Shown: positions 12,677-30,187, numbered from the stretch's first letter. The stretch: 32,000 nt of DNA from Bellilinea caldifistulae (GCF_001306055.1 NZ_LGHJ01000011.1:90001-122000), one strand, 5' to 3'. Notes: generated by a model not told the origin, from the sequence alone. Numbers and translations: made by a program.

Positions 12677-13662
12677 GAACGTTCTCTCCCGGTTTCGGTA
12701 TCAACCCAACAGGCGGAATAATGGTCAGGGGAAACCTGCATAAGAGGGGGATTTTCATGCCAGCAGCGTTCCACCGCGTACTTGCAGCGCGGTGCAAACG
12801 GGCAGTAAGTGGGTTTTTCCAGCAGCACCGGTGGTAACCCATCAATCGAAACCAGCCGACGGCTGCCCGCCTCATCCATGCGTGGCAGGCTGCCGAGCAG
12901 CCCAATTGTGTAGGGGTGGGTTGGATGACCGTACAAATCACGCACGGGGGCGGTTTCGATGATGAAGCCGCCGTACATCACCGCCATGCGGTCGGCCAGA
13001 CCAGCAATCACCCCCAAATCATGGGTGATCCAGATGATCGCCATTCCCAGTTCGTCGCGCAGGCGTTTGACCAGATCCACAATCTGCGCCTGAATGGTCA
13101 CATCCAGCGCGGTGGTCGGTTCATCGGCAATCAGGATCTGCGGGTTGCAGACCAGCGCCATGGCAATCATCACCCGCTGGCGCATCCCGCCGGAAAACTG
13201 GTGCGGATAGTTATTCAAACGATCTTTGGGGTTGGGTATGCCGACTTTGGCGAGCATTTCCGCAACGCGGTCTTCGGCTTGTTTCTGGTTCAGCCCCATG
13301 TGCACTTCCAGTGGTTCGGATACCTGCCGGCCAATGGTCAACACCGGGTTGAAAGAAGTCATCGGGTCTTGAAAGACCATGCTGATCTGCGCCCCGCGGA
13401 TGTGGCGAATTTCCTCATCCGACATGGTCAGCAAATCGCGCCCCTGAAACAGGGCTTTACCGGCCGTGACTTTGCCAGGCGGCGAGGGAATCAGCCGCAG
13501 CATGGACATCACCGTCACGCTCTTGCCGCAGCCGCTTTCCCCCACAATTCCCAATGTTTCGCCTTCTTTCAGGCTGAAAGATACCCCATTAACTGCATGG
13601 ATAACCCCTTCACGGGTACGAAATTGCGTTTCCAGACCTTGCACTTGAAGAATTTCGGGCAT
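12673..13662 (-). CDS. Peptide ABC transporter ATP-binding protein (OppD/DppD type)
   Basis: 329-aa ORF with Walker [10 protein letters not shown], signature FSGGMRQR and Walker [13 protein letters not shown]. It has a 4-nt overlap with the next ATPase gene, and AGAGG lies 7 nt before the ATG. Confidence 0.9.
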
Positions 13663-13745
13663 GCATTGACCTCTGGATTGGGCAGTGATTCAATTAGGAA
13701 AAATTGAGGGGATAATAATAGCCAATTGGTCGAGACACAAGTTGC

Positions 13746-13774
13746 ATTCTACACCTTAAGCGGGGTACTGTCAA
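13746..13774 (-). promoter_or_regulatory. Candidate sigma70-type promoter of the ABC importer operon
   Basis: The minus strand reads TTGACA (13774-13769), a 17-nt spacer, then TAGAAT (13751-13746). This implies a 5' UTR of about 75-80 nt before the ATG at 13662. Confidence 0.45.
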
Positions 13775-13905
13775 TTCAACCCCTGCGCCCGAAAGGGACA
13801 ACAGGGGTGAAGAATTTCCCATTTTTATTGGGAATATGTCATTACTTATTGGATGCTCCGTAAGGTAAAACTAGGAATGAAAGGGTTGAGCATTATAATT
13901 ACTGT

Positions 13906-14649
13906 ATGTATCATACTCCTTTTTTAGAAGAAATCAATACCCTTAATATCCAATTTTCGTTCTATTTCCGGCACGGCAATACCGCTCCGCTGCATGCCGG
14001 TAATGCTCAGCGCTTTCCTGCTGCATCCATCATCAAAATTCCAATTTTGCTGGCCTGGGTACTGCTCGAACGGCGCGGCGAGGTTAACCAGCGGGAAATT
14101 TGCTGCCTGGATGACGAACCGGAAGTGCATGGGGCTGGTTTTTCGTGGCTGTTACACGCCCGCCGCCTGCCTTACCACGATATCCTTCTGCTGATGATGG
14201 CACTTTCCGACAATCTTTGCACCAATCTGATTATCCGCCGCATCGGCCTGGAACGGCTTAACTCCCTCTTCCGGCAGGAGATGGGATTGACCGCCACCGA
14301 AATCCAGCGCAAATTGATGGACTTTGAAGCCCGCCAAAAGGGATTGGATAACTGGATCAGCGCACAAGACTGCATCCGCTTTTTTGAACTATTCGATGCG
14401 CTCACCCCCGCCGAAAAAGCCTGGGTTGAGCCGATGTTGCTGGTCAATCAGGATGATCTGCTGCTCAAACGCGACCTGCCGCGCGACGAGGTGGACTTTT
14501 ACCACAAAACCGGCTCGATTCCCGGCGTCCTGCACGACTGGGGATATACCCGCACCTGCCGCATCTTCCTCTTGACCAGCGGCGCACGAGATGAAACCGC
14601 CCTCTACCCCATCTTTGCCCAGGCCGGCAAACTGCTGCTGGAAAAATAA
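13906..14649 (+). CDS. Class-A beta-lactamase-related serine hydrolase, no signal peptide
   Basis: 247-aa ORF. The three class-A/PBP active-site boxes are present in order: S-x-x-K (ASIIK), S-D-N (ALSDN) and K-T-G (HKTGS). Confidence 0.8.
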   Translation: MYHTPFLEEINTLNIQFSFYFRHGNTAPLHAGNAQRFPAASIIKIPILLAWVLLERRGEVNQREICCLDDEPEVHGAGFSWLLHARRLPYHDILLLMMALSDNLCTNLIIRRIGLERLNSLFRQEMGLTATEIQRKLMDFEARQKGLDNWISAQDCIRFFELFDALTPAEKAWVEPMLLVNQDDLLLKRDLPRDEVDFYHKTGSIPGVLHDWGYTRTCRIFLLTSGARDETALYPIFAQAGKLLLEK

Positions 14650-14748
14650 ACCCCGACCAAGAGCTTTACTCTACCCCATCACACTGAATTTTTTGGGTTC
14701 GATTACGGTCTATTATTGATTGGTTTTATAGAATAAGTTAATAATCTG

Positions 14749-14777
14749 TTGAATTTCGATTGTTGATATTCTATAAT
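14749..14777 (+). promoter_or_regulatory. Near-consensus sigma70-type promoter upstream of the secreted two-gene module
   Basis: TTGAAT (14749-14754), a 17-nt spacer, then TATAAT (14772-14777), all inside a strongly AT-rich stretch. Confidence 0.5.
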
Positions 14778-14854
14778 TCAATTAAACCATGTCCAGACAA
14801 ACAGGGAGGTTTGTCGGCTGGCAGGCCAACGCGCCCCAAAACGCCTGCCTTCAC

Positions 14855-14887
14855 CGCCATCGGTCAACGTTGACCGGTGGCGTTTTT
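14855..14887 (+). terminator. Terminator-like hairpin + T5 inside the leader, 45 nt before the ATG at 14932 (candidate attenuator)
   Basis: An 11-bp GC-rich stem (14855-14865 / 14872-14882, one G-U pair) with the loop aacgtt is followed by TTTTT (14883-14887). Confidence 0.45.
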
Positions 14888-14931
14888 GATGTCGTGGCGC
14901 GGCTCTATCCTTTCAATTGGGGAGGTGTTTC

Positions 14932-16104
14932 ATGAAAAAGTTCGTCCATTTGCTCGTAATTTTGCTGGCAGTCGCCTGGCTGCTTGGCAACGGCACCCAA
15001 CTTGGGCAAGCGCAGGAAGGCAACCCACCCGCTGAAGAAACCAACGCCGAGGGAGATGTCTCCATTCAATCGGCTGTTCAGGGTTACATTCCTGTCCAGG
15101 GCCGCCTGACCGATGCGGCTGGCAACCCGATCAACGGCGCTCATCAGATTGCCGTGCGCATCTACGAAGTCCCTACAGGAGGCAGCGCCCGTTGCTCAAT
15201 CAGTACGCCGGTCAATTTAGATCATGGCCTCTTCACGGTTTTGGTGCCGTGTTCTTCTTCCGTGTTTATCGGAAACGAGTTGTACGCTGGTATCAGCGTG
15301 GATAGCGACTCCGAAATGACTCCTCGCCTGACAATTTACCCCGTTCCGTATGCCATGAGCCTGAAACCCGGCGCAATCATCACCAACACAACCGAAGGCC
15401 AAAGAGCGCTGGATGTCAAAAGCGATGTGGGCGGCGGTGCCAGCGGGGCTGCCCTGTGGGTGGAAAACCGCAGTACTGCCAACGGCATTGGCGAATGGGT
15501 CAAAGCCCGCGGTTCGGATGCCACGCTGGTAATCGAAAACACCAGCAGCGGCTCGTTGCTGAAAGCATTTGGCGGAGATGGCGGCGAGGATGAATTTCAA
15601 GTTACCAACAACGGCACAATCCAGGATAAAGCCGATTCGTATATCTTTGTGCCGGCCATTGAGGCAAAATCCACATCGGCAGACGATGTGATCAATTACT
15701 ACGGCGACGGCAGCATAACCGTTCAATACACATCAACCGGTATCAAAGGGCTTGTCTTTGGTATTCCTTTGCCGGCGGTGTTATACGGTCAACCGGTCAA
15801 AGTGGAAGAAGTGACCATTTTTTACGATGTTTCGAATGCGGGTAGTTCAATCAGCCGAACACAAGTCTTCAAGCAATTGACCAGCGGCAGAATCGGTGGT
15901 GGGCCGGCGTTCATGTACCTTGTGGACAACCCAACCACCCGCAATAGCACCACCTACACATCCTACTCACTTCCTGTAAACCAGTGGCTCAGCGATGAAA
16001 CCGGTTTTCTTACGGTTGCGTTGACGATTAACTACAACAGCACATCTCATTTTCTTGACTTCGGCGGGGTGCGCGTGCGGTTAGGGCACCATCCATTGTA
16101 CTAG
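14932..16104 (+). CDS. Secreted protein of unknown function, fibre/adhesin-like N-terminal module
   Basis: The ORF is 14917..16104. I place the start at the ATG at 14932, with GGAGG 8 nt upstream. The signal peptide is MKKFVHLLVILLAVAWLL...AQ. The N-terminal motif IPVQGRLTDAAGNPINGAHQIAVRIYEVPTGG...GLFTVLV...TPRLTIYPVPYA recurs in many uncharacterised surface or tail-fibre-like proteins as I remember them. Confidence 0.8.
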   Translation: MKKFVHLLVILLAVAWLLGNGTQLGQAQEGNPPAEETNAEGDVSIQSAVQGYIPVQGRLTDAAGNPINGAHQIAVRIYEVPTGGSARCSISTPVNLDHGLFTVLVPCSSSVFIGNELYAGISVDSDSEMTPRLTIYPVPYAMSLKPGAIITNTTEGQRALDVKSDVGGGASGAALWVENRSTANGIGEWVKARGSDATLVIENTSSGSLLKAFGGDGGEDEFQVTNNGTIQDKADSYIFVPAIEAKSTSADDVINYYGDGSITVQYTSTGIKGLVFGIPLPAVLYGQPVKVEEVTIFYDVSNAGSSISRTQVFKQLTSGRIGGGPAFMYLVDNPTTRNSTTYTSYSLPVNQWLSDETGFLTVALTINYNSTSHFLDFGGVRVRLGHHPLY

Positions 16105-16117
16105 GAAGGAACTCACC

Positions 16118-16396
16118 ATGAAAACACGCTGGTTCTTCCTCACTTTTATCCTGTTATTGCTGCTTTCACTGACCCTACCGGCCAGCGCCATGCAATCCGC
16201 CAGCTACAAAGTGGACTGGCTGGTGCCGATAACCGGCAGCGGCGGTAACGCGGCTTCATCATTTTACAGCGCCGATTTCACCCTCGGCCAAAGCGTAATC
16301 GGCAGCGAGAGCGGGGTAAACACCGCCGACTGCCTGGGTTACTGGTGCGGTTCAGGCGGCGAGTACTCTATCATGCTGCCCTTGATCACCCGCTGA
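16118..16396 (+). CDS. Small secreted protein of unknown function with an internal S-x-x-Y-x-x-D-[WF] repeat and a C-terminal IMLPLITR tail
   Basis: 92-aa ORF starting 13 nt after the previous stop, with AGGAAGGA upstream. The signal peptide is MKTRWFFLTFILLLLLSLTLPASA. Confidence 0.7.
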   Translation: MKTRWFFLTFILLLLLSLTLPASAMQSASYKVDWLVPITGSGGNAASSFYSADFTLGQSVIGSESGVNTADCLGYWCGSGGEYSIMLPLITR

Positions 16397-16430
16397 ACCC
16401 AGCGGCAAAGCGTCCATTAGCGCCCTCTGC

Positions 16431-16468
16431 AAAAAAAATAAGCCGGTGGTTGGGGAAAACCACCGGCT
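16431..16468 (-). terminator. Rho-independent terminator of the fusion-enzyme operon
   Basis: Minus strand: an 11-bp stem agccggtggtt / aaccaccggct (loop of 6 nt) is followed by TA + 8 T (plus-strand A-run 16431-16438). It lies 83 nt after the stop at 16552. Confidence 0.65.
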
Positions 16469-16551: not shown

Positions 16552-19500
16552 TCAGGCTAACATGCTGCCCATCTCTCGCAAGTTCTTCACCACCTCCTCC
16601 GGTAGCACGGCAGGCTGCACACCCATCAAGCGGCAGGTGATCAGTTTATGGGCGGTGGTTTCGATCACCTCGGTCATATCCGCTGCGCGGCGCAGGCTGC
16701 TGCCCGCCACCACCAGTCCGTGATTCTGCATCAGCACGGCAATGCCGCGCGGCCCCAGCGCTTTTGCCACCGCCTCGCCCAGTTCATCCGTGCCGGGCAT
16801 GATAAACGGTACCACCGGTATCTCGCCAATGAAAGCCGCCTCGGTCGAAAGCGGCAAGAACGGCGTACCGGTCAGCGCCAGCAGGGTGGCGTACGGCGCA
16901 TGGGTGTGAACCACCGCCTGTACCTCCGGCCGGGCGCGGTAAATGGCGCAATGCACCCGCCGCTCGCTGGAAGCGCTGTAATCCGACTCACCCAGCGGGT
17001 TGCCTTGCAGGTCAATCCGTACCATCATTTCCGGACGTAAATCCCCTTTGAAGATGGCGCTGGGGGTGATCCACACCTCGTCCGGTTTGCCCTCCACCCG
17101 CGCGCTGATGTTGCCGCCGGTGGCGGTGATCCAGCCCCGCTCGTACAATTCGCGCATGATTTCGAGGATCTCATCGCGCACATCCCCCGCTTTGCGGATG
17201 ACCGCCGCAGCCGAGTAAGTTGAGACCGCCGCTTGAGCCGCTGCTGCGGACCCGCCCGCCGAGGCCGGCTGGGCGGGCGGCGCGTTCAACACACTCAGGT
17301 CGCCGGGATCGCCTACCGCCTGACGGGCGCGCTGATACGGCGCGCTCAGGTTGATTTTTTGCATGGTCATGGCCTTGGAAGTATCTCCGCTGAAAGAAAT
17401 TTTCCCGGTCATGGCAGCGCGGGTGGGATTTAACCGGCCGGTGAAAATGCCGTCCAGCGTTTCGGCGGTCATTTTCAAACGCACATCCGGCGGATGAGGG
17501 GGATCACCCAAGCCGGCGCGGGCCTCCCCGCCGGCAAAACGCATGTAAAAGGTGATTCCCAGATCTTTGAGGGTGTACTGAAAGGTCACATTTTTATCGC
17601 GGGCAAACGCGCGGATTTCGTCATCCTTTTCGATTTCCTCCAAAAAGCGGCTCAGCAAACGCTGGAATTGTCCGGCCGCGCCGTCGGCTGCTAGAAGTGG
17701 GGTAGATTGACTTTGCGCAGCCGTTGAAGCAGGCTGGCTTTCTTTGCCAATCAGGCGTTTCAGCCCGCCGAGCAGCCCACCACGCTTTTCAGCTGATTGG
17801 CTGGCCGTTTTTTGGGCGGCTTCGATATCGGTAACCCCGGCGGTCGAGGTGTGACGCAGTTTTTCCAACGTCCGGCGGTCGGCGCGCCGCTCCCCCTGCC
17901 AGCGAAAATTGTCCAAAACCTGGGGATTGAGCGCATACCGCGGCCGCTCACCGCTCAACAGCCGTTTCATTTCTTCCAAAATGATCTTTCCTTGATGAAT
18001 GCCGACTTCCTGGGTGTTACCGCCAATGTGCGGCGTGGCAATCACGTTCGGCAGCGCCAGCAGCGGATCATCACTGCCGGGCGGTTCAACCGGAAAGACA
18101 TCCAAACCAGCCCCGGCCAGCCGTCCGGACTGCAAGGCTTGCAGCAGAGCCGCCTGATCCACCAGCGCAGCCCGGGCAGTGTTGATTAAAAATGCGCCGG
18201 GTTTGATTTGCTCAAAAGCGGCCGCATCCAGTAAAGCGCGGGTTTCGTCCGTCACCGCCGCGTGCAGGGTAATGAAGTCGCTGGCGGCCAGCAATTCGCC
18301 CAGTTCCACTTTTTGAGCGCCGTACAGCGCAGCCTGTTCTTCGCTGATGTAGGGGTCATACAACAGCACACACGCCTCAAACGGCAGCAAGCGGCGGATG
18401 ACGCGCTGGCCAATTGCACCGCCGCCGATCACCCCAACGGTTTTTCCCCACAATTCCTTGCCCTGGAAAGCGAAAAAGGCCTGCCCCATCCGTCCCATGT
18501 CACCCGCTTCACCGCCCGGCTGGCGTAAAAAGGCGGCAGCCTCCGGCAGACGGCGCGCCAGCATCAGCATCAAGGCAATCGTCAGGTCGGCCACGGCATC
18601 GGCATTCCGCCCCGGGGTGTTGATCACCGGCACACCGGCCGCCGTACAGGCCTGCAAATCCACGTTGACCGGATTGCCGCGGCAGGCAAAAATCAGGCGC
18701 AGGTCGGGCAGTTTCTCCAAAACTGCCGCATCCACCACGTCCACTTCGGTGACAAATACCGAATAGCCCCGCAGGGCTTCTACCAGATCATCGCCGCTCA
18801 GCAAGCGACCCTCGCGGCGGTAACTTGCGTAGGTTACTTCGCCCAATTCGCTCAGCAGGCGCACCGCCTCATCACCCAAATCGGCGGTAACCAGCATGCG
18901 CGGGCGAAAATCGCGCGGCAGACTGACTGGCGGTGCGGCTCTGTGCTGCATCGCCTGCACTATGCTGCCGGCTGCGGTTTGATCGGCATCTTCGCGCTGG
19001 CGGCGGATGCTGTCCCATTCTCCAAACCATTCGGTGTAAAAACTCACCCGTTCAGCCGGTGGTGAAAAGGTGCGCAAACTTCCGCACAGGCCGCGGGCGG
19101 CTTCGCCGAGGGAAGGATAAGCCCCGGCTGCGCTGGCAGCGCACATCGCCGCTCCAAGCCCGGCAGCCTGTGGCGTCCGGCTGACTTCAACCGGCCTGCC
19201 GCACACCTCCGCCAGCATCTGATTCCACACCTCGCTGCGGGTCAGCCCGCCGCCTGCCCGGATTTGGGAAGCAACCACCCCGGCTGCCCCTTCGGCCTGT
19301 TCGAGATTGAGGCGCATGGAAGCCGCCAGCCCCTCTAAAATTCCGCGTGCCAGACAGGCGCGCCCGGCCTGTCCGGACGGCAGGCTGAAAGTCGAAAAGG
19401 TCAGTGAATCAACCGGCAGGCCCAGCGCAGCCGCGTTGAACAGCTGCACCCCCAGCGTGGAAAAAACCCCACCTGCACCCGGCGGGACGGTGGCGGCTTC

Positions 19501-20481
19501 GCCACACAGCGCAGCCACCGGTTGAGGTGAGTGCGGGTAAAGCACCCCGGCCGCCCATTCGAGGGCGCTCCCGGCCGAACCGGCGTTGCTTTCCACCACA
19601 TATACATCCGGAAGGAGATGCAGCCCGCACCAGGTACGTCCCTCCGCGTGCAGACGCGGCGCTGAGGTAGTCACCATCACCGGGGCAGTGCTTCCGGCGG
19701 CAATCCCGGCCTGTCCGGCAGAGGTGATGCCCGTGCCCAGCAATGCGCTCTGGGTATCGGCGCCACCGGCGGCAACAACGACATCCGGCGGCAAACCTAA
19801 AAATTCAGCCGCGCCGGTGGTCAAGTTTCCCAGCCGCCCCCCCGCCCAGACCACGGACGGGAAGATGTGCTCGGGTAAACCCAGCCCCGTGATTAGATCA
19901 CCCGCCCAGTTGCGCTGGTGTAAATCAAACAGCAGCGATTCGGCAGCCTGCGAAGCTTCGGCTGCCACCACACCGCACAAGCGGTAGGTCAGCCAGTCGC
20001 TCAGCGTCAGGGCGTAACGAGCGCGCTCCAGCAACGCCGGTTGATTTTCTTTAATCCACAGCAAACGCGCCGCCATCAGTACCGGGCTGGGGTAGTGACC
20101 GGTGCGCTGGTAAAGGTCCCGGCCGCGCGCCTCACCCAGAGTCATGCCCTGCTCAACGGCTCGCGCATCGCGGTTGGGCGCGGCAAACAACACCTCACCG
20201 GCTTCGCCGACCAGCACAACGGTGTGGCGCATGCTGACCACCGCAATCCCCCCGATTTCCGCAGGTTGAACGGCGGCACGCCGGATGACCTCGCCGGTCA
20301 ATTCCCCCAGCGTCCGCCAGATGGTTTCGGTATCCAGATCATAAGCCCAGCCACCCGCCGGCGAAAGCGGGTGAGTCCACGAGCGGTAACCGCTGAAAAT
20401 CTGTCCGTCAGCCGGGTTGACCAGCAGGCAGCGCCCGCCGCTGCTGCCAGCATCCCAACCGATAAACCACTGTTTGCTCAT
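16552..20481 (-). CDS. Four-domain fusion protein: FGGY-family sugar kinase / D-isomer-specific 2-hydroxyacid dehydrogenase / SCP2-like domain / class II aldolase-adducin-family domain
   Basis: A single 1,309-aa ORF with GAGGAGG 8 nt before the ATG. Kinase motifs: [42 protein letters not shown]. Dehydrogenase motifs: [40 protein letters not shown]2-like motif: [19 protein letters not shown]. Aldolase motifs: [26 protein letters not shown]. Confidence 0.9.
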
Positions 20482-20501
20482 CGCCTGAACCTCCTCAATG
20501 A

Positions 20502-21473
20502 TTAAACTTCTTCAGCATCGCACAACCAGTGTGCAGTAGCCGTATCAGTGACCAGCACATCCACCAGCCCGCTGGACAGAGCCGCCTTTACCGCCGGTCG
20601 TTTTGGCTGACCGCCCGCCGCAAGCATTTTCAGGGGAATGCGCTGCAGATCGGATAATGAAATGCCGAGCAGCCGCTGGTGAATGCCGGCCGGCACCAAT
20701 TGACCCCGCCGGTCAAAGAAATACCCCAGCACATCCCCCACCGCCTGATAGACGCGCAGTTCGTTCAGGTCCTCCTCACCGAGCAACCCCACCTGATATA
20801 AAAGCGCAGATTGATCCACCGTGCCGACACTGAAAATAGCCACGTTCGCCTGACGGGCAACATCCAGACTGCGCTGGATAAGCGGGTCGGCCAGCAGATG
20901 ATCACGGGTAGCCGGTTCACTGACGAAAGTGGGCAGTGGGAGGTAGTATGCTTCTCCGCCAGTGAGCACTGCCAGCCGCGTCAGCACATCAAAGTTGTGG
21001 GTAACTTCCACCGGACGAAAATACAGCCCGCCCATCAGGGTAACAAAACGACAGGCGAGCGGCTTTTCCAGCACCAGAAAATCGGGAATGTAGGAAATGG
21101 TACGGCTGACCCCAATCCCTACCGTCCAGCCTTCCTGCAACCGCTGAGCCAGCACCATGGCTGCCATTTGGGCTAACGACTGAGCCAGTTCTTCGCCGGT
21201 TTGATCCATTGCCGGAACCAGCCAGGCGTCCTGCAGGGGATAACGCTGCAAGAGGGCTTCCACCAGCGGTAGATCGGTGGAAATCGGTCGGATGCGGATT
21301 TCGACGATCCCACTTTGTCGGGCTTCCTTGAGGAGCCGGTTGACGGTGATGCGCGAGAGACCCAGCCGCGCACCAATCTCCGCCTGAGTCAGGTCTCGTT
21401 CGTAATACAGCCAGGCCACCCGCGCCAGCAGCTGCTCACGGGTGGAGATGTCTTCCAGCGTTGAATCATGCAT
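20502..21473 (-). CDS. SorC-family (LsrR/DeoR-Bsu/CggR-type) sugar-phosphate-binding transcriptional regulator
   Basis: The ORF is 20502..21509. The N-terminal HTH reads [32 protein letters not shown]. The C-terminal effector domain contains [25 protein letters not shown] and LVTD. I prefer the ATG at 21473 (MHDSTLED) because AAGGG lies upstream. The gap to the fusion gene is 20 nt. Confidence 0.85.
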
Positions 21474-21675
21474 GTTACATTTGAACCCTTTCTGAACAAA
21501 TGTTAGCAAATTTTGAAGAAAGATGCAAGTTGTTTTCCAAACTCACCCACCATTTTCAATTCTACTGGTGCAATTCGCCGGTGGATTTTGGCTTGTCATC
21601 TCCCCTACTTTGCTCCACAATTAAGTCATTCCGCCTGGGGCGTCTTCCCACTCTATTCCATCGAGGAAACTCCTT

Positions 21676-22806
21676 TTGAACGCTCTTTTTTTAGTGGTCG
21701 TCTTCCTTTACTGGTCGGCGTTGTACCTGTATGTGCCCACCCTGCCGCTCTATCTGCAAACCAAAACGAGCGATCTGGCGCTGATCGGCACGGCGCTTTC
21801 GATGTACGGGTTGTGGCAGTTGATCGTGCGCCTGCCGCTCGGCATTCTGGCGGACTGGGCCGGACGCCGCAAGCCGTTTGCCATCTTCTGGCTGTTGCTG
21901 GTGGCTGCCGGTGCGCTGACCCTCGGCCATGCCCCCACCATCGAGATCGCCATCCTTGGGCGGGCGCTGGTCGGTGTTTCAGCCGGCACTTGGGTGCCGC
22001 TGGTCGTGCTGTTTTCCAACCGCTTTTCAGCGGCAGAAGTGGTGCGCGCCACGGGTATTCTGGCAATGACCGCAACCACCGGGCGGATCGTTGCCACTGC
22101 CATCAACGGCTGGTTGAATCAACTGGGCGGTTACCCACTGGCATTCAACCTGGCGGCAGCCTCTGCACTGTTAGGTGCCGCTCTTTTGCTCTTTTTACCG
22201 GAAGCGCCCACGCCACCCCGCAAACCCTCCCTGAATGGTCTGAAGCGGTTGATCAGCCGGCGGGAGGTGATGCTGCCTTCCCTCCTCCAGGTGCTGACCC
22301 ACACCGCCGACTTCGCCGCCACCTTCACCTTCATCCCCATTTTGGCGCGTCAGAAGGGTGCTTCGGATGTGGTCATCAGCATGCTGCTCAGCCTCAATCT
22401 GTTGATTGGCCTGGCGGGCAACAGTCTGGCAGCGGTTCTGGCCCAGCGTTTTGGTCAGCGGCGCATGGTCATGCTCAGTTTTGCTCTGCTGGGCGGCGGC
22501 ATTCTTGGCGCAGCCTGGGCGCCAACCCTCGCATGGGTGTTCGTCTTCCAGTTCTGGGTCGGTCTGGGATTTGGAATTGGCTATCCGCTGTTGATGGGGT
22601 TGAGCATTAACCGTGTGGATGCGGCCGAACGCACCACCGCCATGGGACTGCATCAGTCGGTTTATTCGCTGGGCATGTTCCTCGGCCCGTGGCTGAGTGG
22701 GGTGCTGGCGGCTGCGCTGAACATTCCGCTGATGTTCGTGATCATCGGTTTGCTGATTGTGCTGATGGGCATTGGCGGCGCGGCAATCCTCGACGGTCAA
22801 GGGTGA
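21676..22806 (+). CDS. MFS transporter
   Basis: 376-aa ORF (TTG start) with about 12 TM segments. MFS motif A is present as GILADWAGRRKP. It is transcribed divergently from the regulator. Confidence 0.85.
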   Translation: MNALFLVVVFLYWSALYLYVPTLPLYLQTKTSDLALIGTALSMYGLWQLIVRLPLGILADWAGRRKPFAIFWLLLVAAGALTLGHAPTIEIAILGRALVGVSAGTWVPLVVLFSNRFSAAEVVRATGILAMTATTGRIVATAINGWLNQLGGYPLAFNLAAASALLGAALLLFLPEAPTPPRKPSLNGLKRLISRREVMLPSLLQVLTHTADFAATFTFIPILARQKGASDVVISMLLSLNLLIGLAGNSLAAVLAQRFGQRRMVMLSFALLGGGILGAAWAPTLAWVFVFQFWVGLGFGIGYPLLMGLSINRVDAAERTTAMGLHQSVYSLGMFLGPWLSGVLAAALNIPLMFVIIGLLIVLMGIGGAAILDGQG

Positions 22807-22989: not shown

Positions 22990-24690
22990 TTAGCCCAGCC
23001 GGGTGGAGTAAAAACGACCCGGAGTGAAGAACGGCCCACGCGGAGCGGCGCTGCCACCGCTATAACCGCCGATCAGGTCGAGGAACGCTTCCACCACCTC
23101 CGCCTGAAAATGGCGGTTGGATTGATACCGCAGGTAATCCACTACCTGATGCGGCTGCCACGCCGAGCGGTAGGGGCGGTTGGAACTGAGCGCATCCCAC
23201 ACATCCACCACCGCAAAGATGCGCGCCCCCAGCGGAATTTCCTCACCCCGCAGCCGGCGCGGATAACCGCTGCCATCCCACTTTTCGTGATGGCAGTAGG
23301 GAATATCCAGCAGGTCGTAGAAGTGGGGAATCGGGCTGAGCAGTTCGTAAGCGTATAACGGATGACGGCGCATCACTTTCCACTCGCTCTCGTCCAGCGG
23401 GCCGGGTTTGAGCAAAATGGCGTCCGGAATGCCAATCTTTCCAATATCGTGCAGCTGAGCGCCGCGGCGCAGTTTCACCAGTTCGGCATGGTTCAACCCC
23501 ATGCGTTTGCCCATTTCCACGGTCAGATCCACCACCCGGTTGGAGTGTCGTTCGGTGGTGAAATCGCGCAATTCCAGCGCGCGCGTCCAGCCGTCAATGG
23601 TGGCTTCGTAGGTCTGATTCAAATCCTGGTTGGACTGTTCCAGTGAGCGGGTCAACTGCGCGTTCTGAATGGCAACGGCAGCCGTGTTCGCCACCAGACT
23701 GAGCAGGGCTGTGTCGGTCGCCATGCGGAAGCGCGCCGGACGGTAACTGTGAGCCTGCACCAGCCCAATTACCTGCCCGCGAGTCAACATGGGCACATAC
23801 ACCCCCGAACGCACCGCCCGGCCAGGGCGTACAAAACCAAGCCGGGCCGTGCCGGGCGGGGCCTGAGCCAGCAGGTCATCTATGACCAGCGGTTTAGCGC
23901 TCTGAATGACCTTAAACTGATGCGAATCGGGATGAGTGAGCCGACTCAGGCGCGGCACGCGGTTCAAATCCACCGGCTCGCCCTCATGTTCCCCATAGGC
24001 GCAAATCAGTTCCTGGGTTTCCCCTTCGTAGAGGGAGATATACACCGTACACACGTCCGGGAGCAATTGAACCACTGCTGCACTCAACCGGCGGTAAATT
24101 TCGGTTAAGTCGTCCAGCTGTGCCAGCGCCCGTCCCACCTCACCGACCGCCGCCAGTTTACTTTCGTTCAAACCCCAAAGCAGACGGGGGTCTTCGCGCT
24201 GCTCACCGGTGAGGGTGATCAACAAGGCAGCCCGTCCGTTGAAGAGAATCGCCTCGATATTGGCATAACTGCGGATCAACCTGCCCTGCTGGTTAAAAAT
24301 GAATAATTCCAACCCATGCAGGGAACGCTCCCCACCGAGGCGGGCGAGGATTTTCTTCAAATTATTCTCGCCTAGCCCCGCTGGTAGGCTGTTTTCGGAT
24401 TGATGAATCAACAGACTGCGGGGAATGCCGATCAGATCACAATACCACGGGTTGGCTTCCAGATAGGTGAAGTCGCGTCTGTCCAGAATGCACACGGCTG
24501 CCGGTACACTTTCGATCAACCGCAGCAATGCCTGACGGGTATGATGCAGCGCCTGCTCATAATAAGAAGCGGCAGATGTGCCTGTCTTGCGGCGGAAATA
24601 AGGGGGACGTTTCATAAAGCCGGGTCTGTTTCCCTTTCTCGTGGGGTGAATTTGTCCACGCAAAATGTAAAAAGCGCATAAAAAAGCCAA
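22990..24690 (-). CDS. PAS-GAF-HD-GYP protein (c-di-GMP phosphodiesterase type)
   Basis: 566-aa ORF. The HD-GYP signatures are HDIGKIGIP and HHEKWDGSGYPRRL. PAS-like (LIESVPAAVCILD) and GAF-like regions lie upstream. The start codon is uncertain (24690 or the ATG at about 24614). Confidence 0.85.
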   Translation of the reverse strand: MAFLCAFYILRGQIHPTRKGNRPGFMKRPPYFRRKTGTSAASYYEQALHHTRQALLRLIESVPAAVCILDRRDFTYLEANPWYCDLIGIPRSLLIHQSENSLPAGLGENNLKKILARLGGERSLHGLELFIFNQQGRLIRSYANIEAILFNGRAALLITLTGEQREDPRLLWGLNESKLAAVGEVGRALAQLDDLTEIYRRLSAAVVQLLPDVCTVYISLYEGETQELICAYGEHEGEPVDLNRVPRLSRLTHPDSHQFKVIQSAKPLVIDDLLAQAPPGTARLGFVRPGRAVRSGVYVPMLTRGQVIGLVQAHSYRPARFRMATDTALLSLVANTAAVAIQNAQLTRSLEQSNQDLNQTYEATIDGWTRALELRDFTTERHSNRVVDLTVEMGKRMGLNHAELVKLRRGAQLHDIGKIGIPDAILLKPGPLDESEWKVMRRHPLYAYELLSPIPHFYDLLDIPYCHHEKWDGSGYPRRLRGEEIPLGARIFAVVDVWDALSSNRPYRSAWQPHQVVDYLRYQSNRHFQAEVVEAFLDLIGGYSGGSAAPRGPFFTPGRFYSTRLG

Positions 24691-24852: not shown

Positions 24853-27129
24853 GTGGAGATGATGAACACATCCAACCATCCCGATTTTCTGCAACAAAGC
24901 CCGCAGGCAGCCTTGATCGTCCGCACGGACGGCGAAATCGTGTCCGCCAACCTGCTCGCCCTCCATTTGTTGCGTTATACCGCCGATCAACTTTCGGCTC
25001 TCCCGCTTTGGCATCTCATTCCACCCGAATACCACTCCCTATTTCAGCAAACCGATCGGGAACTGGCTGCTCATTCGGGGACGGAATACGAGCTGTTCGC
25101 GCTGGATCGTGAGCAACAGCGAATACCGGTTGCCGTACGAATTTCGCCCCTGCAAGATGACCTGCTGGGCGTCGAGTTACGCGACTTGCGTCCGGTCAAA
25201 GAAGCCCGCGGTGCTCACCGCCGCCAGACTGCCGTTCTGCGTGCCGTTGCAAATGCCAGTTACCAGTTATTCCGCTCCGCTCAACCGGAAGAAGAAATCC
25301 CGTTGGTGCTGGCGCAATTGGGAAACGCCGCCGATGTCAGCCGGGTCTACATCTTTGAAAATCACTGGGAAAACGGCCAGCGGCTGTTGACCAGCCAGCG
25401 CTATGAGTGGTGCGCTGCCGGCATCCAGCCTCAAATTGACGACCCGACTTTACAAAATTTCGACTACCTGGCTGTCGGATTTGATCACTTTTTAGCCACC
25501 TTGCAGCGCGGCGAGGTCGTATCCGGGCGGGTGCGCGATTTTCCCCCCGCCGAACAGACGGAGTTCAGCCGGCAGGGCATTCTTTCCATTCTGATTATCC
25601 CCATTTTTGTTCAACAGCAGTTGTGGGGGTTCATCGGCTTTGACGAGTGCCGCAGCGAACGCACCTGGCAGCCGTATGAAGTGGACACCCTGCGGACGGC
25701 CGCCAATCTGTTTGGGGCTTTCTTTGAGCGGCGCAAAGCCGAAACCGCCCTGCGCGCCAGCGAAGAACTTTACCGTATGCTGGTCGAAAATCAAGGTTTG
25801 GGAGTTGCGCTGGTGGATGAGGGGGAGAACTTCCTTTACGTTAACCTGGAAACCGAAAAACTGTTTGGGGTTGAGCCCGGCAGTTTAACCGGCCGCAACC
25901 TGAGCGAATTTCTCTCCGCCGATCAAATGCAGGTGGTGCTGGAACAAACCGCCCTGCGCCGCAAGGGCTTCCGCAGCCATTATGAAATCGAGATTGTCCT
26001 TCCCAATCAGCAACGGCGCATCCTCTCCGTCCATGCCACGCCCCATTTTGACGAGAGGGGCCGGTTCATCGGTGCGTTCGGCGTTTTTACCGACATCACC
26101 GATCAGAAACGCATGGAGCAGCGTATCCGCAACCTGTTGATGATCGAACAGTCTCACCGGCGCGAATCGGAAGCCCTGCGGGAAGCCATCAGCGCCTTGA
26201 TTCACGATTTGAACTCGAAACAGGCCGCCAAACAGGTGCTGACCGGTCTGGCGCGCATTCTTCCCTACGACCGCTGTGCGCTGTACCTGCAGCAGCGGGA
26301 TCGGTTTTATCTGGCAGGCAAAATCGGTTACCCACCCGGCGCTCCGCCGCCTTCCCTGACCGCCGTTCACCCCCTGGTGCAGGAAATCCAATCTGCCGTG
26401 CGGTTTGTCAATCACATCCAGGATGAGCGCCAACTGGAATGGCTGGGAGAAACCGGCAAGGGAATTGCCTGGATGAGCATCCCGCTTCGCTGGAACAACC
26501 GCCCCATCGGACTGATTTGGGCCATTCGTTCGGCTCCTTCCACCTTCAAGAATAATGAGGTTGCCCTCGCGGAGACCTTTGCCGGGCCGGCAGCCCTTTC
26601 CATTCAGAACAGCCGTCTGTACAGCCAGACCCAGCGGCTGGCTACGCTTGACCCGCTGACCGGTCTGCTCAACCGCCGTTCCATCTTCGAGGCCGGCGAG
26701 AGGGAACTGCTGCGCGCCCACCGTTATGCCGAACCGTTCAGCCTGCTGGTGATCGATCTGGATCATTTCAAAGAGATTAACGACACCTATGGACATCTGA
26801 TTGGAGATGACCTGATCAAGAAGGTGGCCCGGCGGATGAAACACGCCCTGCGTTCCAGCGATCTGATCGGCAGGCCCGGCGGGGATGAGTTCATCGTTTT
26901 GTTAATCAAAACCACGCCTGCCGAAGCAGTCATGGTTGCCGGTCGGCTGCTCAATGCCCTGCGGGAACGGCCTTTTCGGCTGGAGGGTAATACTCATCAC
27001 ATCACGGCCAGCATCGGCGCAGCCGGTCTGGATGACCCCTCAGCCAGCCTGCAATCGCTGATCCAGCGGGCGGATGCGGCTATGTACACCGCCAAACAAA
27101 ACGGTGGAAATCAGGTGCAGGTGGGATGA
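24853..27129 (+). CDS. PAS-GAF-PAS-GAF-GGDEF diguanylate cyclase
   Basis: 758-aa ORF (GTG start). The GGDEF active site is RPGGDEFIVLL, with an RxxD I-site (RSSD) five residues upstream. DHFKEINDTYGH is also present. Confidence 0.9.
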   Translation: MEMMNTSNHPDFLQQSPQAALIVRTDGEIVSANLLALHLLRYTADQLSALPLWHLIPPEYHSLFQQTDRELAAHSGTEYELFALDREQQRIPVAVRISPLQDDLLGVELRDLRPVKEARGAHRRQTAVLRAVANASYQLFRSAQPEEEIPLVLAQLGNAADVSRVYIFENHWENGQRLLTSQRYEWCAAGIQPQIDDPTLQNFDYLAVGFDHFLATLQRGEVVSGRVRDFPPAEQTEFSRQGILSILIIPIFVQQQLWGFIGFDECRSERTWQPYEVDTLRTAANLFGAFFERRKAETALRASEELYRMLVENQGLGVALVDEGENFLYVNLETEKLFGVEPGSLTGRNLSEFLSADQMQVVLEQTALRRKGFRSHYEIEIVLPNQQRRILSVHATPHFDERGRFIGAFGVFTDITDQKRMEQRIRNLLMIEQSHRRESEALREAISALIHDLNSKQAAKQVLTGLARILPYDRCALYLQQRDRFYLAGKIGYPPGAPPPSLTAVHPLVQEIQSAVRFVNHIQDERQLEWLGETGKGIAWMSIPLRWNNRPIGLIWAIRSAPSTFKNNEVALAETFAGPAALSIQNSRLYSQTQRLATLDPLTGLLNRRSIFEAGERELLRAHRYAEPFSLLVIDLDHFKEINDTYGHLIGDDLIKKVARRMKHALRSSDLIGRPGGDEFIVLLIKTTPAEAVMVAGRLLNALRERPFRLEGNTHHITASIGAAGLDDPSASLQSLIQRADAAMYTAKQNGGNQVQVG

Positions 27130-30100: not shown

Positions 30101-30187
30101 CACCCACACCGTCAGCAAGAGCCCGCATATCCGCCAAGCCAACCGAACACCCCGCCGCTGTGTGCGCATCGTCCACCTCCCGCCCAT
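27143..30187 (-). CDS. Secreted multidomain peptidase-C25 (gingipain)-like protein with substituted catalytic positions, an FN3-like domain and beta-sandwich domains
   Basis: 1,014-aa ORF with a signal/anchor MRTQRRGVRLAWRICGLLLTVWVAVLPL. The C25-like core reads YLIIAPDEF...LLLVGDVGMLPAW...TDLYYATLDG...ARLPV...VYFGQGSRPGW...LLVSFASRTAE...SFAEAWL. The FN3-like region reads LRPQLSWSAVSGADGYDVQ...YYWRVRAKN. The protein ends in LFLPVIRR. Confidence 0.85.
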   Translation of the reverse strand: MGGRWTMRTQRRGVRLAWRICGLLLTVWVAVLPLMERSNPLRAAAFAAQPQGVLASASNMTEAQSAPSRYLIIAPDEFAPALAGYIAAKQAEGYDVIFKTLSQIGSSAAQIRAVILFYSPQFLLLVGDVGMLPAWPSRNGLSTSTDLYYATLDGAWDYTPNLAYARLPVHSTAELQAVLAKWADYRALDGSQAWLGRVAFVAGDEANESIHNQMIEQYTQPAGFDGRFPNNPQPGGDRLYVHAYAAAKTDLAAALNEGRGLAVYFGQGSRPGWMSPYFTAEDVTALTGPPLPLLVSFASRTAELDEEQTSFAEAWLLHPTSGALAVIAAGADTTHTADERLERELFHGLFSNAAAPPPLGEALRTAFLAFGGYYLPGETLVKQYYEMYSLWGDPTLRLWLDAPRRFSLSLEPNTLSVCGGLASSPSVEVGLASSLTQMVALSLLNPPQGVSGTFSPNPVGSPGSAALTLTIPAELPAGYFPLTVQGLSSAFQQAAALSLMVRPAAPSDKPLPLLPANGAMRVSLRPQLSWSAVSGADGYDVQIGLDADFSPIVEVFEDIAQTTLTLSRELQPSQTYYWRVRAKNGCGAGDYSPVAQFTTLPPPGECPFGSQSELLYRQSFDAVPTDGWLLQNGWEVSGAFGRGGVARAAAPAEISQKTLTSPLLSLPDDASVLAVWVRAEMAYEFGEPPACLDGGLLEISTDDGQTWFRAGSEGLLNPPYEGTLAVSFGNPLGGSPAWCHRRDWSPLAVDLTAYREQEVRLRFVVASGADEQSAEGLALDEFEAVACRAESPVRRLAISPAEQSAILPAGAAASFVWQVSNIGGQNERVEISISGELPADPSPPSFVLNAGESQEIRVEVRLPDSAAPESKYRLDLTARSQENSSVWAAASLELTVQRCGLQWSVPEDIPPLSAGQDYLLQIVLTNTGNAADTFRLSAVDQRNWRVVTPDVGPIQMGESALLYLPIAPPENAPPGETNRLRLTAHSEACPSFEQSLERLLVIQGSRLFLPVIRR

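Follow-up and report, generated by a model that had tools for sequence, protein, structure and literature searches.

A kinase-dehydrogenase-SCP2-aldolase fusion in Bellilinea caldifistulae and its possible role in cleaving the polyol tails of lipids

A four-module fusion gene

We analysed a 32,000-nucleotide stretch of the Bellilinea caldifistulae genome (NZ_LGHJ01000011.1:90001-122000; hereafter the window), in which one gene encodes an FGGY-family kinase, a dehydrogenase, an SCP2 domain and a class II aldolase as a single polypeptide. An earlier note on this DNA had described the gene in these terms, and its description stands. The open reading frame (ORF) at 16552-20481 on the minus strand starts with ATG, encodes 1309 amino acids (aa) and has no internal stop in translation. 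Each of the four modules is detected by Pfam, in the order that the note gave and several-fold above the gathering score. The motifs quoted there are all found in the translation where it had placed them, and its domain borders were right to within about 20 residues. The gene and its parts are:

16552..20481, minus strand: kinase-dehydrogenase-SCP2-aldolase fusion gene; single ORF, ATG start, 1309 codons plus stop
18952..20481, minus strand: module 1, FGGY-family kinase (aa 1-510; Pfam FGGY_N and FGGY_C)
17911..18906, minus strand: module 2, NAD-dependent D-2-hydroxyacid-dehydrogenase-family domain (aa 526-857)
17680..17910, minus strand: linker 1, low-complexity and variable, with no Pfam match (aa 858-934)
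17284..17679, minus strand: module 3, sterol-carrier-protein-2-type (SCP2) alpha/beta domain (aa 935-1066, borders from the structure model)
17182..17283, minus strand: linker 2, Ala/Pro-rich and variable (aa 1067-1100)
16555..17181, minus strand: module 4, class II metal-dependent aldolase of the FucA/DrdA-type fold (aa 1101-1309)

The Pfam gathering cut-offs for the six domain models involved lie between 21 and 29 bits. In the kinase, FGGY_N matches aa 7-249 (134.5 bits, cut-off 28.8) and FGGY_C matches aa 366-452 (62.4 bits, cut-off 27). Residue conservation was read from an alignment of 32 full-length members of the family, which are 45-88% identical to the window protein. D10, G12, D242 (in GGADTQ) and G411-G412 of the kinase are invariant in all 32; we take D10 and D242 to be the catalytic aspartates and the Gly-rich segment to be the ATP loop. 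The closest characterised kinase is LsrK (PDB 5ya0, 170 bits), and the NCBIfam LsrK model (NF008187) aligns with aa 2-510 at 236.5 bits, under its cut-off of 528. The window fusion fails every specific equivalog cut-off tried in NCBIfam, namely those for LsrK, XylB, D-3-phosphoglycerate dehydrogenase (PGDH), FucA, OtnC, MtnB and an AraD-like subfamily.

The dehydrogenase is matched by 2-Hacid_dh at aa 530-852 (61.9 bits), which encloses a 2-Hacid_dh_C match at aa 635-820 (187.1 bits). It is nearest to PGDH (PDB 1ygy, 183 bits), but reaches only 229 bits on the PGDH model TIGR01327 against a cut-off of 454. The glycines G686, G688 and G691 of the GxGxxG motif, the acidic D709 and the triad R770/E799/H818 are invariant and align to PGDH. 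By contrast, the pocket is remodelled: the RS pair of PGDH is replaced by an invariant T578-E579, its GxGxD loop is replaced by RGNPV with an invariant R601, and a conserved 10-aa insert occurs at aa 661-670. Therefore, the module is not a 3-phosphoglycerate dehydrogenase. Linker 1, which follows it, has an alignment consensus mostly without a majority residue.

The SCP2 module is matched by Pfam at aa 954-1043 (54.0 bits, cut-off 21.3). Its AlphaFold2 model has a pLDDT of about 95 and an alpha/beta secondary-structure pattern that is compatible with SCP2, and SCP2 proteins in the PDB give weak sequence matches. When the model of aa 928-1309 was searched with Foldseek, aldolase matches dominated the list and SCP2 was not independently placed. 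Linker 2 is predicted to be disordered at aa 1075-1092 (pLDDT below 50, model residues 148-165).

The same model of aa 928-1309 (mean pLDDT 89.9) delimits the aldolase at aa 1101-1308. Aldolase_II matches aa 1104-1278 with 182.4 bits. The best structural match is DrdA (6btd/6btg; for 6btg, TM score 0.91 and root-mean-square deviation 1.6 A), followed by FucA and YgbL, with TM scores of 0.86-0.91 over the three. By sequence, the module is about equally near to YgbL/OtnC-like proteins, DrdA and FucA. DrdA, FucA and YgbL form an enediolate of the dihydroxyacetone phosphate (DHAP) type from CH2OP-CO-CHOH-X. The invariant residues G1123-N1124, S1171-S1172-E1173, H1192, H1194 and H1254 comprise three His metal ligands and the catalytic Glu, all kept from FucA, and the phosphate-binding Gly-Asn and Ser-Ser pairs. 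The NCBIfam scores stay under their cut-offs for FucA (98 against 264), OtnC (114 against 250), an epimerase subfamily (130 against 251) and MtnB (105 against 137).

The resemblance to OtnC and YgbL brings up a tetronate-type route, which we regard as quite improbable. A C4 sugar acid would be phosphorylated and then oxidised by the PdxB/PGDH-like domain, and an OtnC-like decarboxylase would yield DHAP and CO2. Consistent with this, the model for 3-oxo-tetronate-4-phosphate decarboxylase gives 114 bits, sequence and fold searches both rank YgbL structures among the best matches, the dehydrogenase is nearest to PGDH, which uses a phosphorylated acid, and the short-chain dehydrogenase/reductase that accompanies the fusion in other loci weakly matches D-erythronate dehydrogenase (64 bits). 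However, all these scores are far under the cut-offs, the aldehyde oxidisers and coenzyme A (CoA) ligases described below would be left without a substrate, and the SCP2 domain and the hopanoid and steroid-like gene contexts would go unexplained.

Spread and variants of the family

A search of 5.8 billion proteins, with clusters taken at the 90% identity level, matched 93 clusters. Of these, 84 carry all four modules, with 42-97% identity to the window protein; none of the 84 lacks SCP2. The relatives P0001 (97% identical) and P0002 (88%) equal the window fusion in length and architecture, and the nearest named cluster is a protein from a Bellilinea metagenome-assembled genome (MAG), also 88% identical. 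In a scan of one genome per species, 433 stretches encode a relative of the fusion, and the best 80 of the 433 were examined as loci. Most of these 80 give a single uninterrupted tblastn alignment over about residues 1-1309, and the remainder are interrupted by contig ends or by tandem-SCP2 inserts. The loci span about ten phyla. Carriers include Anaerolineae and other Chloroflexota, Myxococcota, Thermodesulfobacteriota, Spirochaetales, Bacteroidia, Gammaproteobacteria (with the cultured Halioglobus japonicus), Planctomycetota (Ca. Uabimicrobium amorphum) and Actinomycetota, among them five Mycobacterium species.

The architecture is thus widespread, not rare. The earlier note had found the four-module order unfamiliar, and we likewise found no description of a kinase-dehydrogenase-SCP2-aldolase order in the searchable literature. 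Its unfamiliarity does not extend to databases: automatic pipelines have already given composite names to members of the family, and JGI calls many of them “autoinducer 2 kinase”.

The fusion is an intact and selected single polypeptide, neither decayed nor mis-assembled, given that all four modules match their hidden Markov models (HMMs) and that the catalytic residues are invariant in the 32 relatives. This bears out the opinion of the earlier note that the catalytic signatures are intact. The note had also raised the possibility that an assembly or frameshift error joined separate genes, which is effectively refuted. Broken versions occur on some long-read contigs (L007, L096), and one locus (L089) has a separate aldolase gene. 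However, the broken versions sit on contigs where other genes are fragmented too, and the ORF is uninterrupted in most of the best 80 loci, across many independent assemblies and phyla. On the L007 and L096 contigs, many genes, the fusion included, are split into two or three ORFs, in the pattern of uncorrected long-read frameshifts. We therefore rejected these “split” fusions as evidence of modularity, as they are probably sequencing frameshifts.

Two variant forms look real. L089 has a kinase-dehydrogenase gene and a separate aldolase gene, without SCP2. L090 has a kinase-aldolase fusion without the dehydrogenase, and an aldehyde dehydrogenase (ALDH) gene lies directly upstream. In other members, of about 1,470-1,490 aa (L008, L075, P0014-P0026, P0068), two tandem SCP2 domains lie between the dehydrogenase and the aldolase. 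Matches to SCP2-aldolase only are mostly fragments on contigs of 1-3 kb. Two proteins of 320 aa (P0157, P0159) match the aldolase end of the window fusion at 88-91% identity but also have Pfam matches to helix-turn-helix (HTH) domains; they may be chimeric gene calls or a regulator-aldolase rearrangement.

The variants bear on the order of the steps. The dehydrogenase is fused to the kinase even when the aldolase is separate, which suggests an alditol-type substrate that is phosphorylated and then oxidised. Alternatively, the dehydrogenase could act last. The kinase and aldolase would use a ketose-type substrate, ALDH or an aldehyde:ferredoxin oxidoreductase would convert the released 2-hydroxy-aldehyde to a 2-hydroxy acid, and the dehydrogenase would perform its canonical chemistry, yielding a 2-oxo acid. 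The intact Arg/Glu/His triad, whose Arg normally binds a carboxylate, fits this scheme, as do the L090 form, which lacks the dehydrogenase entirely, and the genes for an IOR-like 2-oxoacid:ferredoxin oxidoreductase and a CoA ligase that adjoin the kinase-dehydrogenase gene of L089. We nevertheless give the scheme little credence: the persistent kinase-dehydrogenase fusion suggests consecutive steps, and the pocket is heavily remodelled relative to acid-using relatives.

Gene neighbourhoods of the relatives

We surveyed 87 loci by clustering the ORFs within 9 kb of the fusion gene, building cluster HMMs and annotating representatives. An aldehyde oxidiser, a lipid-CoA gene or an oxygenase is present in 25 of the 49 loci that have at least 5 kb on both flanks. 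Aldehyde:ferredoxin oxidoreductase (AFOR), which like ALDH is an aldehyde oxidiser, is encoded in 12 loci, and a GntR-UTRA regulator in 13.

Four contexts can be distinguished. In Chloroflexota (8 loci), the order is GntR(UTRA), AFOR, sometimes an MFS transporter, a class III aminotransferase, sometimes an M28 peptidase, a short-chain dehydrogenase/reductase (SDR) resembling NAD-epimerases, and the fusion. The aminotransferase is nearest to PigE, a lipid-aldehyde aminotransferase (406 bits; PDB 4ppm). An M28 peptidase gene in the window (1242-2501) was considered as a counterpart of the one in this operon and rejected, as the two have no BLAST similarity.

In Myxococcota, “Delta”, Gamma and Bacteroidia, the order is acyl-CoA ligase, TetR, cytochrome P450, the fusion, sometimes a KshA-like Rieske oxygenase, a CasG-like ligase and an SDR. 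Also nearby are heteromeric PimCD-like acyl-CoA dehydrogenases, an EchA19-like hydratase and an Ltp-type thiolase with a DUF35 protein. The CasG-like ligase lies within about 1 kb downstream of the fusion in 12 loci and scores 603-693 bits on the NCBIfam model for CasG, a steroid-24-oyl-CoA synthetase, versus about 360 on a generic long-chain ligase model. P450 genes occur in 11 loci and are adjacent to the fusion on the same strand in 10; their NCBIfam matches are generic only and give no clue to a substrate. The KshA-like oxygenase occurs in 8 loci (PDB 4qdc, E = 2e-52).

In the third context, Mycobacterium, ALDH is directly downstream (4 loci), with SDRs, a FadD11-like ligase and WS/DGAT nearby. 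The fourth context, that of the Bellilinea group to which the window belongs, has a SorC/DeoR-type regulator directly upstream (7 loci) and, in the window and in L001, a divergent MFS gene; MFS genes occur in 8 of the surveyed loci.

An aldehyde oxidiser beside a kinase-aldolase pair is a signature of pathways that produce DHAP and an aldehyde, such as those for fucose, rhamnose and 5-deoxyribose. An aldehyde is thus a likely product here, because AFOR is present in 12 loci and ALDH is downstream of the fusion in the four Mycobacterium loci and upstream in L090. The adjoining CasG-like ligase, P450, KshA-like oxygenase and beta-oxidation-type genes suggest that the product resembles a steroid-type acid, and the universal SCP2 domain together with the steroid-type partners suggests a steroid-like lipid for the rest of the substrate.

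Of all partners, an SDR that resembles NAD-epimerases and 3beta-HSD is shared most widely (18 of 87 loci, e.g., L015 6585-7586). It spans Chloroflexota, Mycobacterium and a clade linked to hopanoid (hpn) genes; in hpn clusters (L091 5458-6480, L093 3533-4552, L097 11151-12170) it adjoins HpnH. It reaches 70 bits on the HpnA model, whose cut-off is 368. This SDR might be a candidate for the reductase that converts ribosylhopane to bacteriohopanetetrol (BHT). In L020, L022, L029 and L048 (Thermodesulfobacteriota, “Delta”, Bacteriovoracaceae), a DUF1329/LolA-like gene is upstream of the fusion and a BNR/YCF48-like repeat protein is encoded downstream; these flanking genes may constitute an envelope uptake system for a hydrophobic compound. 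We rejected an Opp/Dpp-type ABC transporter as a partner: SBP_bac_5 proteins are encoded at only 5 loci, most of them closely related to the window, and the matches to the ATPase are generic; we interpret the proximity as local synteny.

The hypothesis of a hopanoid substrate was recorded before we scanned for hopanoid genes. A scan of 4,191 neighbour ORFs for the DxDDTA motif of squalene-hopene cyclase yielded one match, in L044, a Thermodesulfobacteriota MAG. The genes just upstream of the fusion form a canonical hopanoid cluster, in which Pfam identifies squalene synthase, squalene-hopene cyclase (436 and 407 bits), a phosphorylase of the HpnG type, a GT2 glycosyltransferase and a B12-radical-SAM enzyme. 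A metagenome scan with the L044 fusion protein found six loci. The L092 fusion is intact (1,328 aa) and 68% identical to the L044 protein, and that of L096 is 61% identical. As in L044, squalene synthase, cyclase, an HpnG-like gene and GT2 are immediately upstream in both, along with a gene of about 285 aa without an assigned family. The L091 and L093 contigs begin at the fusion; after it come a lipoprotein-like gene, the SDR that resembles NAD-epimerases and a radical-SAM gene that is 80-91% identical to proteins named adenosyl-hopene transferase HpnH by NCBI and JGI. The fusion proteins of the hpn-linked loci are mutually 61-75% identical. In every locus of this clade with enough sequence, hpn genes thus flank the fusion, upstream in L044, L092 and L096 and downstream in L091 and L093, so that both sides are represented. 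A rough chance estimate, which assumes that the cyclase is present in about 10% of genomes, places a random gene within 10 kb of it with a probability of about 5e-4, which amounts to about 0.04 over 87 loci. Because the replicated hpn-linked loci are related to one another, they are not independent events.

A protein of about 285-306 aa adjoins the fusion in the hpn-linked clade (L092 5236-6093, L044 5616-6479, L031 3021-3941, L094 675-1532). It has no Pfam match and contains two EEARH (ExxH) motifs about 90 residues apart, which look like the signature of a ferritin-like di-iron oxidase. In L097, a related hopanoid cluster, the slot of the fusion is occupied by a Zn-dependent alcohol dehydrogenase of the medium-chain dehydrogenase/reductase (MDR) type (419 aa, 13497-14756), which may be an alternative hopanoid side-chain enzyme. 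The slot seems to carry interchangeable accessory enzymes, which plausibly act on the side chain.

The location of these genes could also be read as a sign of another role, in which the fusion would tailor hopanoids without cleaving them. Phosphorylation, oxidation or epimerisation would produce a variant hopanepolyol, with the aldolase fold serving as an epimerase or isomerase. In support of this idea, the gene lies in a biosynthetic cluster between an HpnG-like gene and HpnH, the MDR alcohol dehydrogenase fills the same slot in L097, and the top NCBIfam match of the aldolase module is the epimerase-named subfamily. Position 1214 of this module is Glu or Asp, not Tyr, in 75 of 75 sequences; L-ribulose-5-phosphate 4-epimerase has Asp there. 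According to PMC12583986, moreover, no enzyme is yet known for the step from ribosylhopane to BHT, which leaves a role for tailoring. On the other hand, the epimerase uses a second acid/base Tyr, which is lacking in the C-terminal tail of the fusion. In most carriers, Anaerolineae and Mycobacterium among them, the 10 kb around the fusion contain no hpn genes, and the neighbours are of a catabolic kind, with aldehyde oxidisers, CoA ligases and genes for beta-oxidation. In sum, we consider this role rather improbable.

The remaining features of the window that concern the fusion gene are:

20490..20496, minus strand: Shine-Dalgarno sequence GAGGAGG, 8 nt upstream of the ATG at 20481, read from the sequence
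20502..21509, minus strand: SorC/DeoR(Bacillus)-type regulator with an HTH and a sugar-phosphate-binding domain (Pfam Sugar-bind, 194.7 bits)
16469-16440, minus strand: terminator-like hairpin with a 12-bp stem and a T run, about 85 nt past the stop codon of the fusion
21676..22806, plus strand: MFS transporter, divergent, a candidate partner (Pfam MFS_1, 149.6 bits)

The stop codon of the regulator and the ATG of the fusion are separated by 20 nt, and the two genes are probably co-transcribed. The hairpin is identical in L001, a syntenic Bellilinea locus. This looks like a transcription unit in the order regulator, fusion, terminator. Regulators of the SorC/DeoR type usually sense sugar phosphates.

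The regulator reaches 210.8 bits on the NCBIfam DeoR model and 156.2 bits on that of LsrR, both below the cut-offs. Along with the LsrK matches of the kinase and the JGI labels, this recalls the LsrK/LsrR system for autoinducer 2 (AI-2), whose kinase is the nearest one that has been characterised and whose regulator belongs to a related family. In such a reading, the LsrK-like kinase would convert AI-2 (4,5-dihydroxy-2,3-pentanedione, DPD) to phospho-DPD, the dehydrogenase would reduce a keto group and the aldolase would release DHAP and acetaldehyde, replacing LsrG/LsrF. We find this very improbable and rejected it. The LsrK score is less than half of its cut-off, the regulator scores higher on Bacillus DeoR than on LsrR, and AI-2 gives no role to SCP2 or to the lipid and hopanoid contexts. 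Neither the LsrACDB transporter nor LsrG nor LsrF turned up among the neighbour families present in at least 3 of the 87 loci, although no dedicated search for lsr genes was made.

The context of the window itself, a SorC-type regulator and an MFS gene, is neutral as to the substrate. A soluble polyol is a serious alternative for the window gene, even if we think it unlikely. The same steps would take place on an alditol or deoxy-alditol in solution, such as a pentitol, 5-deoxyribitol or fucitol, yielding DHAP and glycolaldehyde, acetaldehyde or lactaldehyde, and SCP2 would have merely a structural or oligomerisation role. FGGY kinases normally act on C3-C7 sugars and polyols, and Brucella EryA and EryB, under the SorC-type EryD, follow the same kinase-then-dehydrogenase logic. 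The SorC/DeoR-type regulator and transporter of the window, the GntR-UTRA regulators of 13 loci and the forms without SCP2 (L089, L090) are also in keeping with a small polyol, and AFOR and ALDH would suit a small aldehyde equally well. By contrast, a small substrate does not account for an SCP2 domain that is kept in every full-length cluster and doubled in some. The CasG-like ligases, P450s, KshA-like oxygenases and beta-oxidation genes would have no role with a C2-C3 aldehyde, and the fusion gene is embedded in hpn clusters in one clade.

Beyond this unit, a segment of about 1.7 kb (14650-16440), just past the conserved terminator, is missing from the otherwise syntenic L001. It has two plus-strand ORFs, 14917-16104 (395 aa) and 16118-16396 (92 aa), with signal-peptide-like N-termini; neither matched anything in Pfam, NCBIfam or PHROGs. 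On the other side of the unit is an adjacent, divergent signalling pair of the cyclic di-GMP type, PAS-GAF-HD(HD_5) at 22990-24690 (minus strand) and PAS-GAF-GGDEF at 24853-27129 (plus strand). Next are a C25 (gingipain-family) peptidase of 1,014 aa with fn3 and Ig-like domains (27143-30187) and a LysM-YkuD L,D-transpeptidase (30266-31789, minus strand).

Proposed reaction and its meaning

We propose, with a probability of roughly 0.4, that the fusion cleaves the side chain of bacteriohopanepolyols into DHAP and a C32 hopanoid aldehyde, with the SCP2 domain holding the lipid. The FGGY kinase would phosphorylate the terminal primary hydroxyl of R-CHOH-CHOH-CH2OH, and the NAD-dependent dehydrogenase would oxidise the neighbouring secondary hydroxyl, giving R-CHOH-CO-CH2OP, which is of the ketose-1-phosphate type. 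The metal-dependent class II aldolase would then split this compound into DHAP and the aldehyde R-CHO. SCP2 would hold the hydrophobic R group, such that a soluble enzyme could act on a lipid. The earlier note had already suggested a sequence of phosphorylation, oxidation or reduction, and cleavage on one protein, and phosphorylation, oxidation and cleavage form the reading best supported by gene context, because aldehyde oxidisers and acyl-CoA ligases are the commonest neighbours. It had looked to ketose sugars for the substrate, and here we differ: SCP2 and the neighbourhoods point to a polyol-tailed lipid, probably a bacteriohopanepolyol.

The best candidate substrate would be the ribose-derived C32-C35 side chain of bacteriohopanepolyols, e.g., of bacteriohopanetetrol. 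On this compound, C35 would be the site of phosphorylation and C34 that of oxidation, and the cut between C32 and C33 would release DHAP and the C32 aldehyde. Other genomes would process the aldehyde further: AFOR or ALDH would oxidise it, a CasG-like ligase would attach CoA and beta-oxidation would follow. Aminated hopanepolyols such as 35-aminobacteriohopanetriol could enter via a PigE/HpnO-type aminotransferase, in the reverse of the HpnO reaction type, and the SDR could reduce the resulting aldehyde. In the organism of the window (Bellilinea-like Anaerolineae), the system would be controlled by a regulator of the sugar-phosphate type, and its role would be to harvest DHAP.

Among natural lipids, bacteriohopanetetrol is the best match for a molecule that ends in a linear polyol, attached through a C-C bond to a -CH(CH3)CH2CH2- unit. 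The side chain of C32 hopanoic acid, -CH(CH3)CH2CH2COOH, is identical to that of cholate, the substrate of CasG. In addition, the proposed intermediate is a 5-substituted 5-deoxy-D-ribulose-1-phosphate, and DrdA, the nearest aldolase fold, is a 5-deoxy-D-ribulose-1-phosphate aldolase. The side chain of bacteriohopanetetrol is derived from ribose via adenosylhopane and ribosylhopane, and HpnO, which makes aminobacteriohopanetriol, is an aminotransferase-family protein (PMC12583986).

Several observations weigh against hopanoid side-chain cleavage. The window has no lipid or hopanoid genes, the partners there being the SorC/DeoR-type regulator and the MFS transporter. Within 10 kb of the fusion, the window shows no hpn context, and neither do 86 of the 87 other loci; the linkage is limited to one clade of related loci whose proteins are 45-47% identical to that of the window. 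The context groups are roughly equidistant (40-55% identity); the reaction type probably transfers between them, but the lipid part of the substrate may not. No informative partner is present in 24 of the 49 well-flanked loci. A catabolic cleavage enzyme would be odd within a biosynthetic cluster, where tailoring is as plausible as turnover, and the MDR alcohol dehydrogenase of L097 fits tailoring as well as catabolism.

The modules themselves also raise objections. We know of no FGGY kinase that acts on a lipid and of no member of the 2-hydroxyacid-dehydrogenase family that oxidises a polyol phosphate, and the conserved Arg770 position normally binds a carboxylate. A Tyr shared by FucA (Tyr113), DrdA and YgbL aligns to T1213/E1214 of the fusion. 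Given this replacement of the catalytic Tyr by Glu or Asp, the aldol chemistry may differ, and the changed acid/base residue may leave room for chemistry of the epimerase or decarboxylase type.

The proposed pathway can be compared with known systems. Its end chemistry is that of DrdK-DrdI-DrdA and of the MtnK/MtnA/Ald2 “DHAP shunt”, in which a class II aldolase converts a 5-deoxy-pentulose-1-phosphate to DHAP and an aldehyde. However, the 5-deoxyribose pathway starts from an aldose and uses an APH-type kinase and an isomerase encoded by separate genes. The fusion instead has an FGGY kinase and a dehydrogenase, a proposed alditol start, a single chain, an SCP2 domain and Glu/Asp in place of the catalytic Tyr. 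In the FucK-FucA-AldA and RhaB-RhaD routes, an FGGY kinase yields a ketose-1-phosphate, a class II aldolase releases DHAP and an aldehyde, and an aldehyde dehydrogenase follows; their substrates are soluble deoxy-sugars, and no dehydrogenase step precedes cleavage. RhaEW is an aldolase fusion too, but its second part is an SDR, which works on the aldehyde product, and not a domain of the 2-hydroxyacid-dehydrogenase family. The Brucella erythritol pathway (EryA, EryB, EryD) resembles the window unit in its FGGY polyol kinase, polyol-phosphate dehydrogenase and SorC-family regulator, but EryB is an FAD enzyme, isomerases take the place of an aldolase, and the pathway has separate genes and lacks SCP2.

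On the lipid side, steroid side-chain catabolism (CasG, KshA, ChsE/ChsH/Ltp2) supplies close relatives of the fusion's partners in at least 12 loci, although no steroid pathway is known to involve a kinase or an aldolase that releases DHAP. Peroxisomal MFE-2 is a known case of SCP2 fused to lipid enzymes, and UbiJ (also UbiT) is a bacterial SCP2 accessory protein. In MFE-2 and the Ubi complex, SCP2 attached to soluble enzymes presents the lipid, as we propose for the fusion.

Hopanoids are very abundant bacterial lipids and key molecular fossils. Our literature searches found no enzyme that degrades the hopanoid side chain and no enzymatic route to C32 hopanoic acids. Chemically, periodate cleavage of bacteriohopanetetrol gives C32 products (PMC12583986), and among the hopanoic acids of an anoxic deposit, ββ-C32 homohopanoic acid is the most abundant (PMC11884234).

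It is possible, if still doubtful, that this family cleaves the hopanoid side chain biologically, which would make it the first such enzyme system, converting bacteriohopanetetrol, or aminobacteriohopanetriol after transamination, to DHAP and a C32 aldehyde without oxygen. The logic of a kinase and a class II aldolase is already known (Fuc, Rha, Drd); hopanoid polyols, as the probable substrate class, would be new. Should the substrate be a small polyol, the fusion would still be an unusually complete three-step pathway on one chain, with carriers that include cultured Mycobacterium and Halioglobus as well as Ca. Uabimicrobium. If hopanoid cleavage is correct, the C32 hopanoic acids and hopanols that dominate sediments would be microbial products, made for example by Anaerolineae harvesting DHAP, and not purely the outcome of abiotic diagenesis. 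This would change the reading of C31-C33 hopanoid biomarkers. A route would open to complete hopanoid degradation via CasG-like ligases and steroid-type beta-oxidation. Finally, the FGGY kinase, 2-hydroxyacid-dehydrogenase-family and SCP2 modules would have a new use, and metabolism would gain a lipid-polyol version of the “DHAP shunt”.

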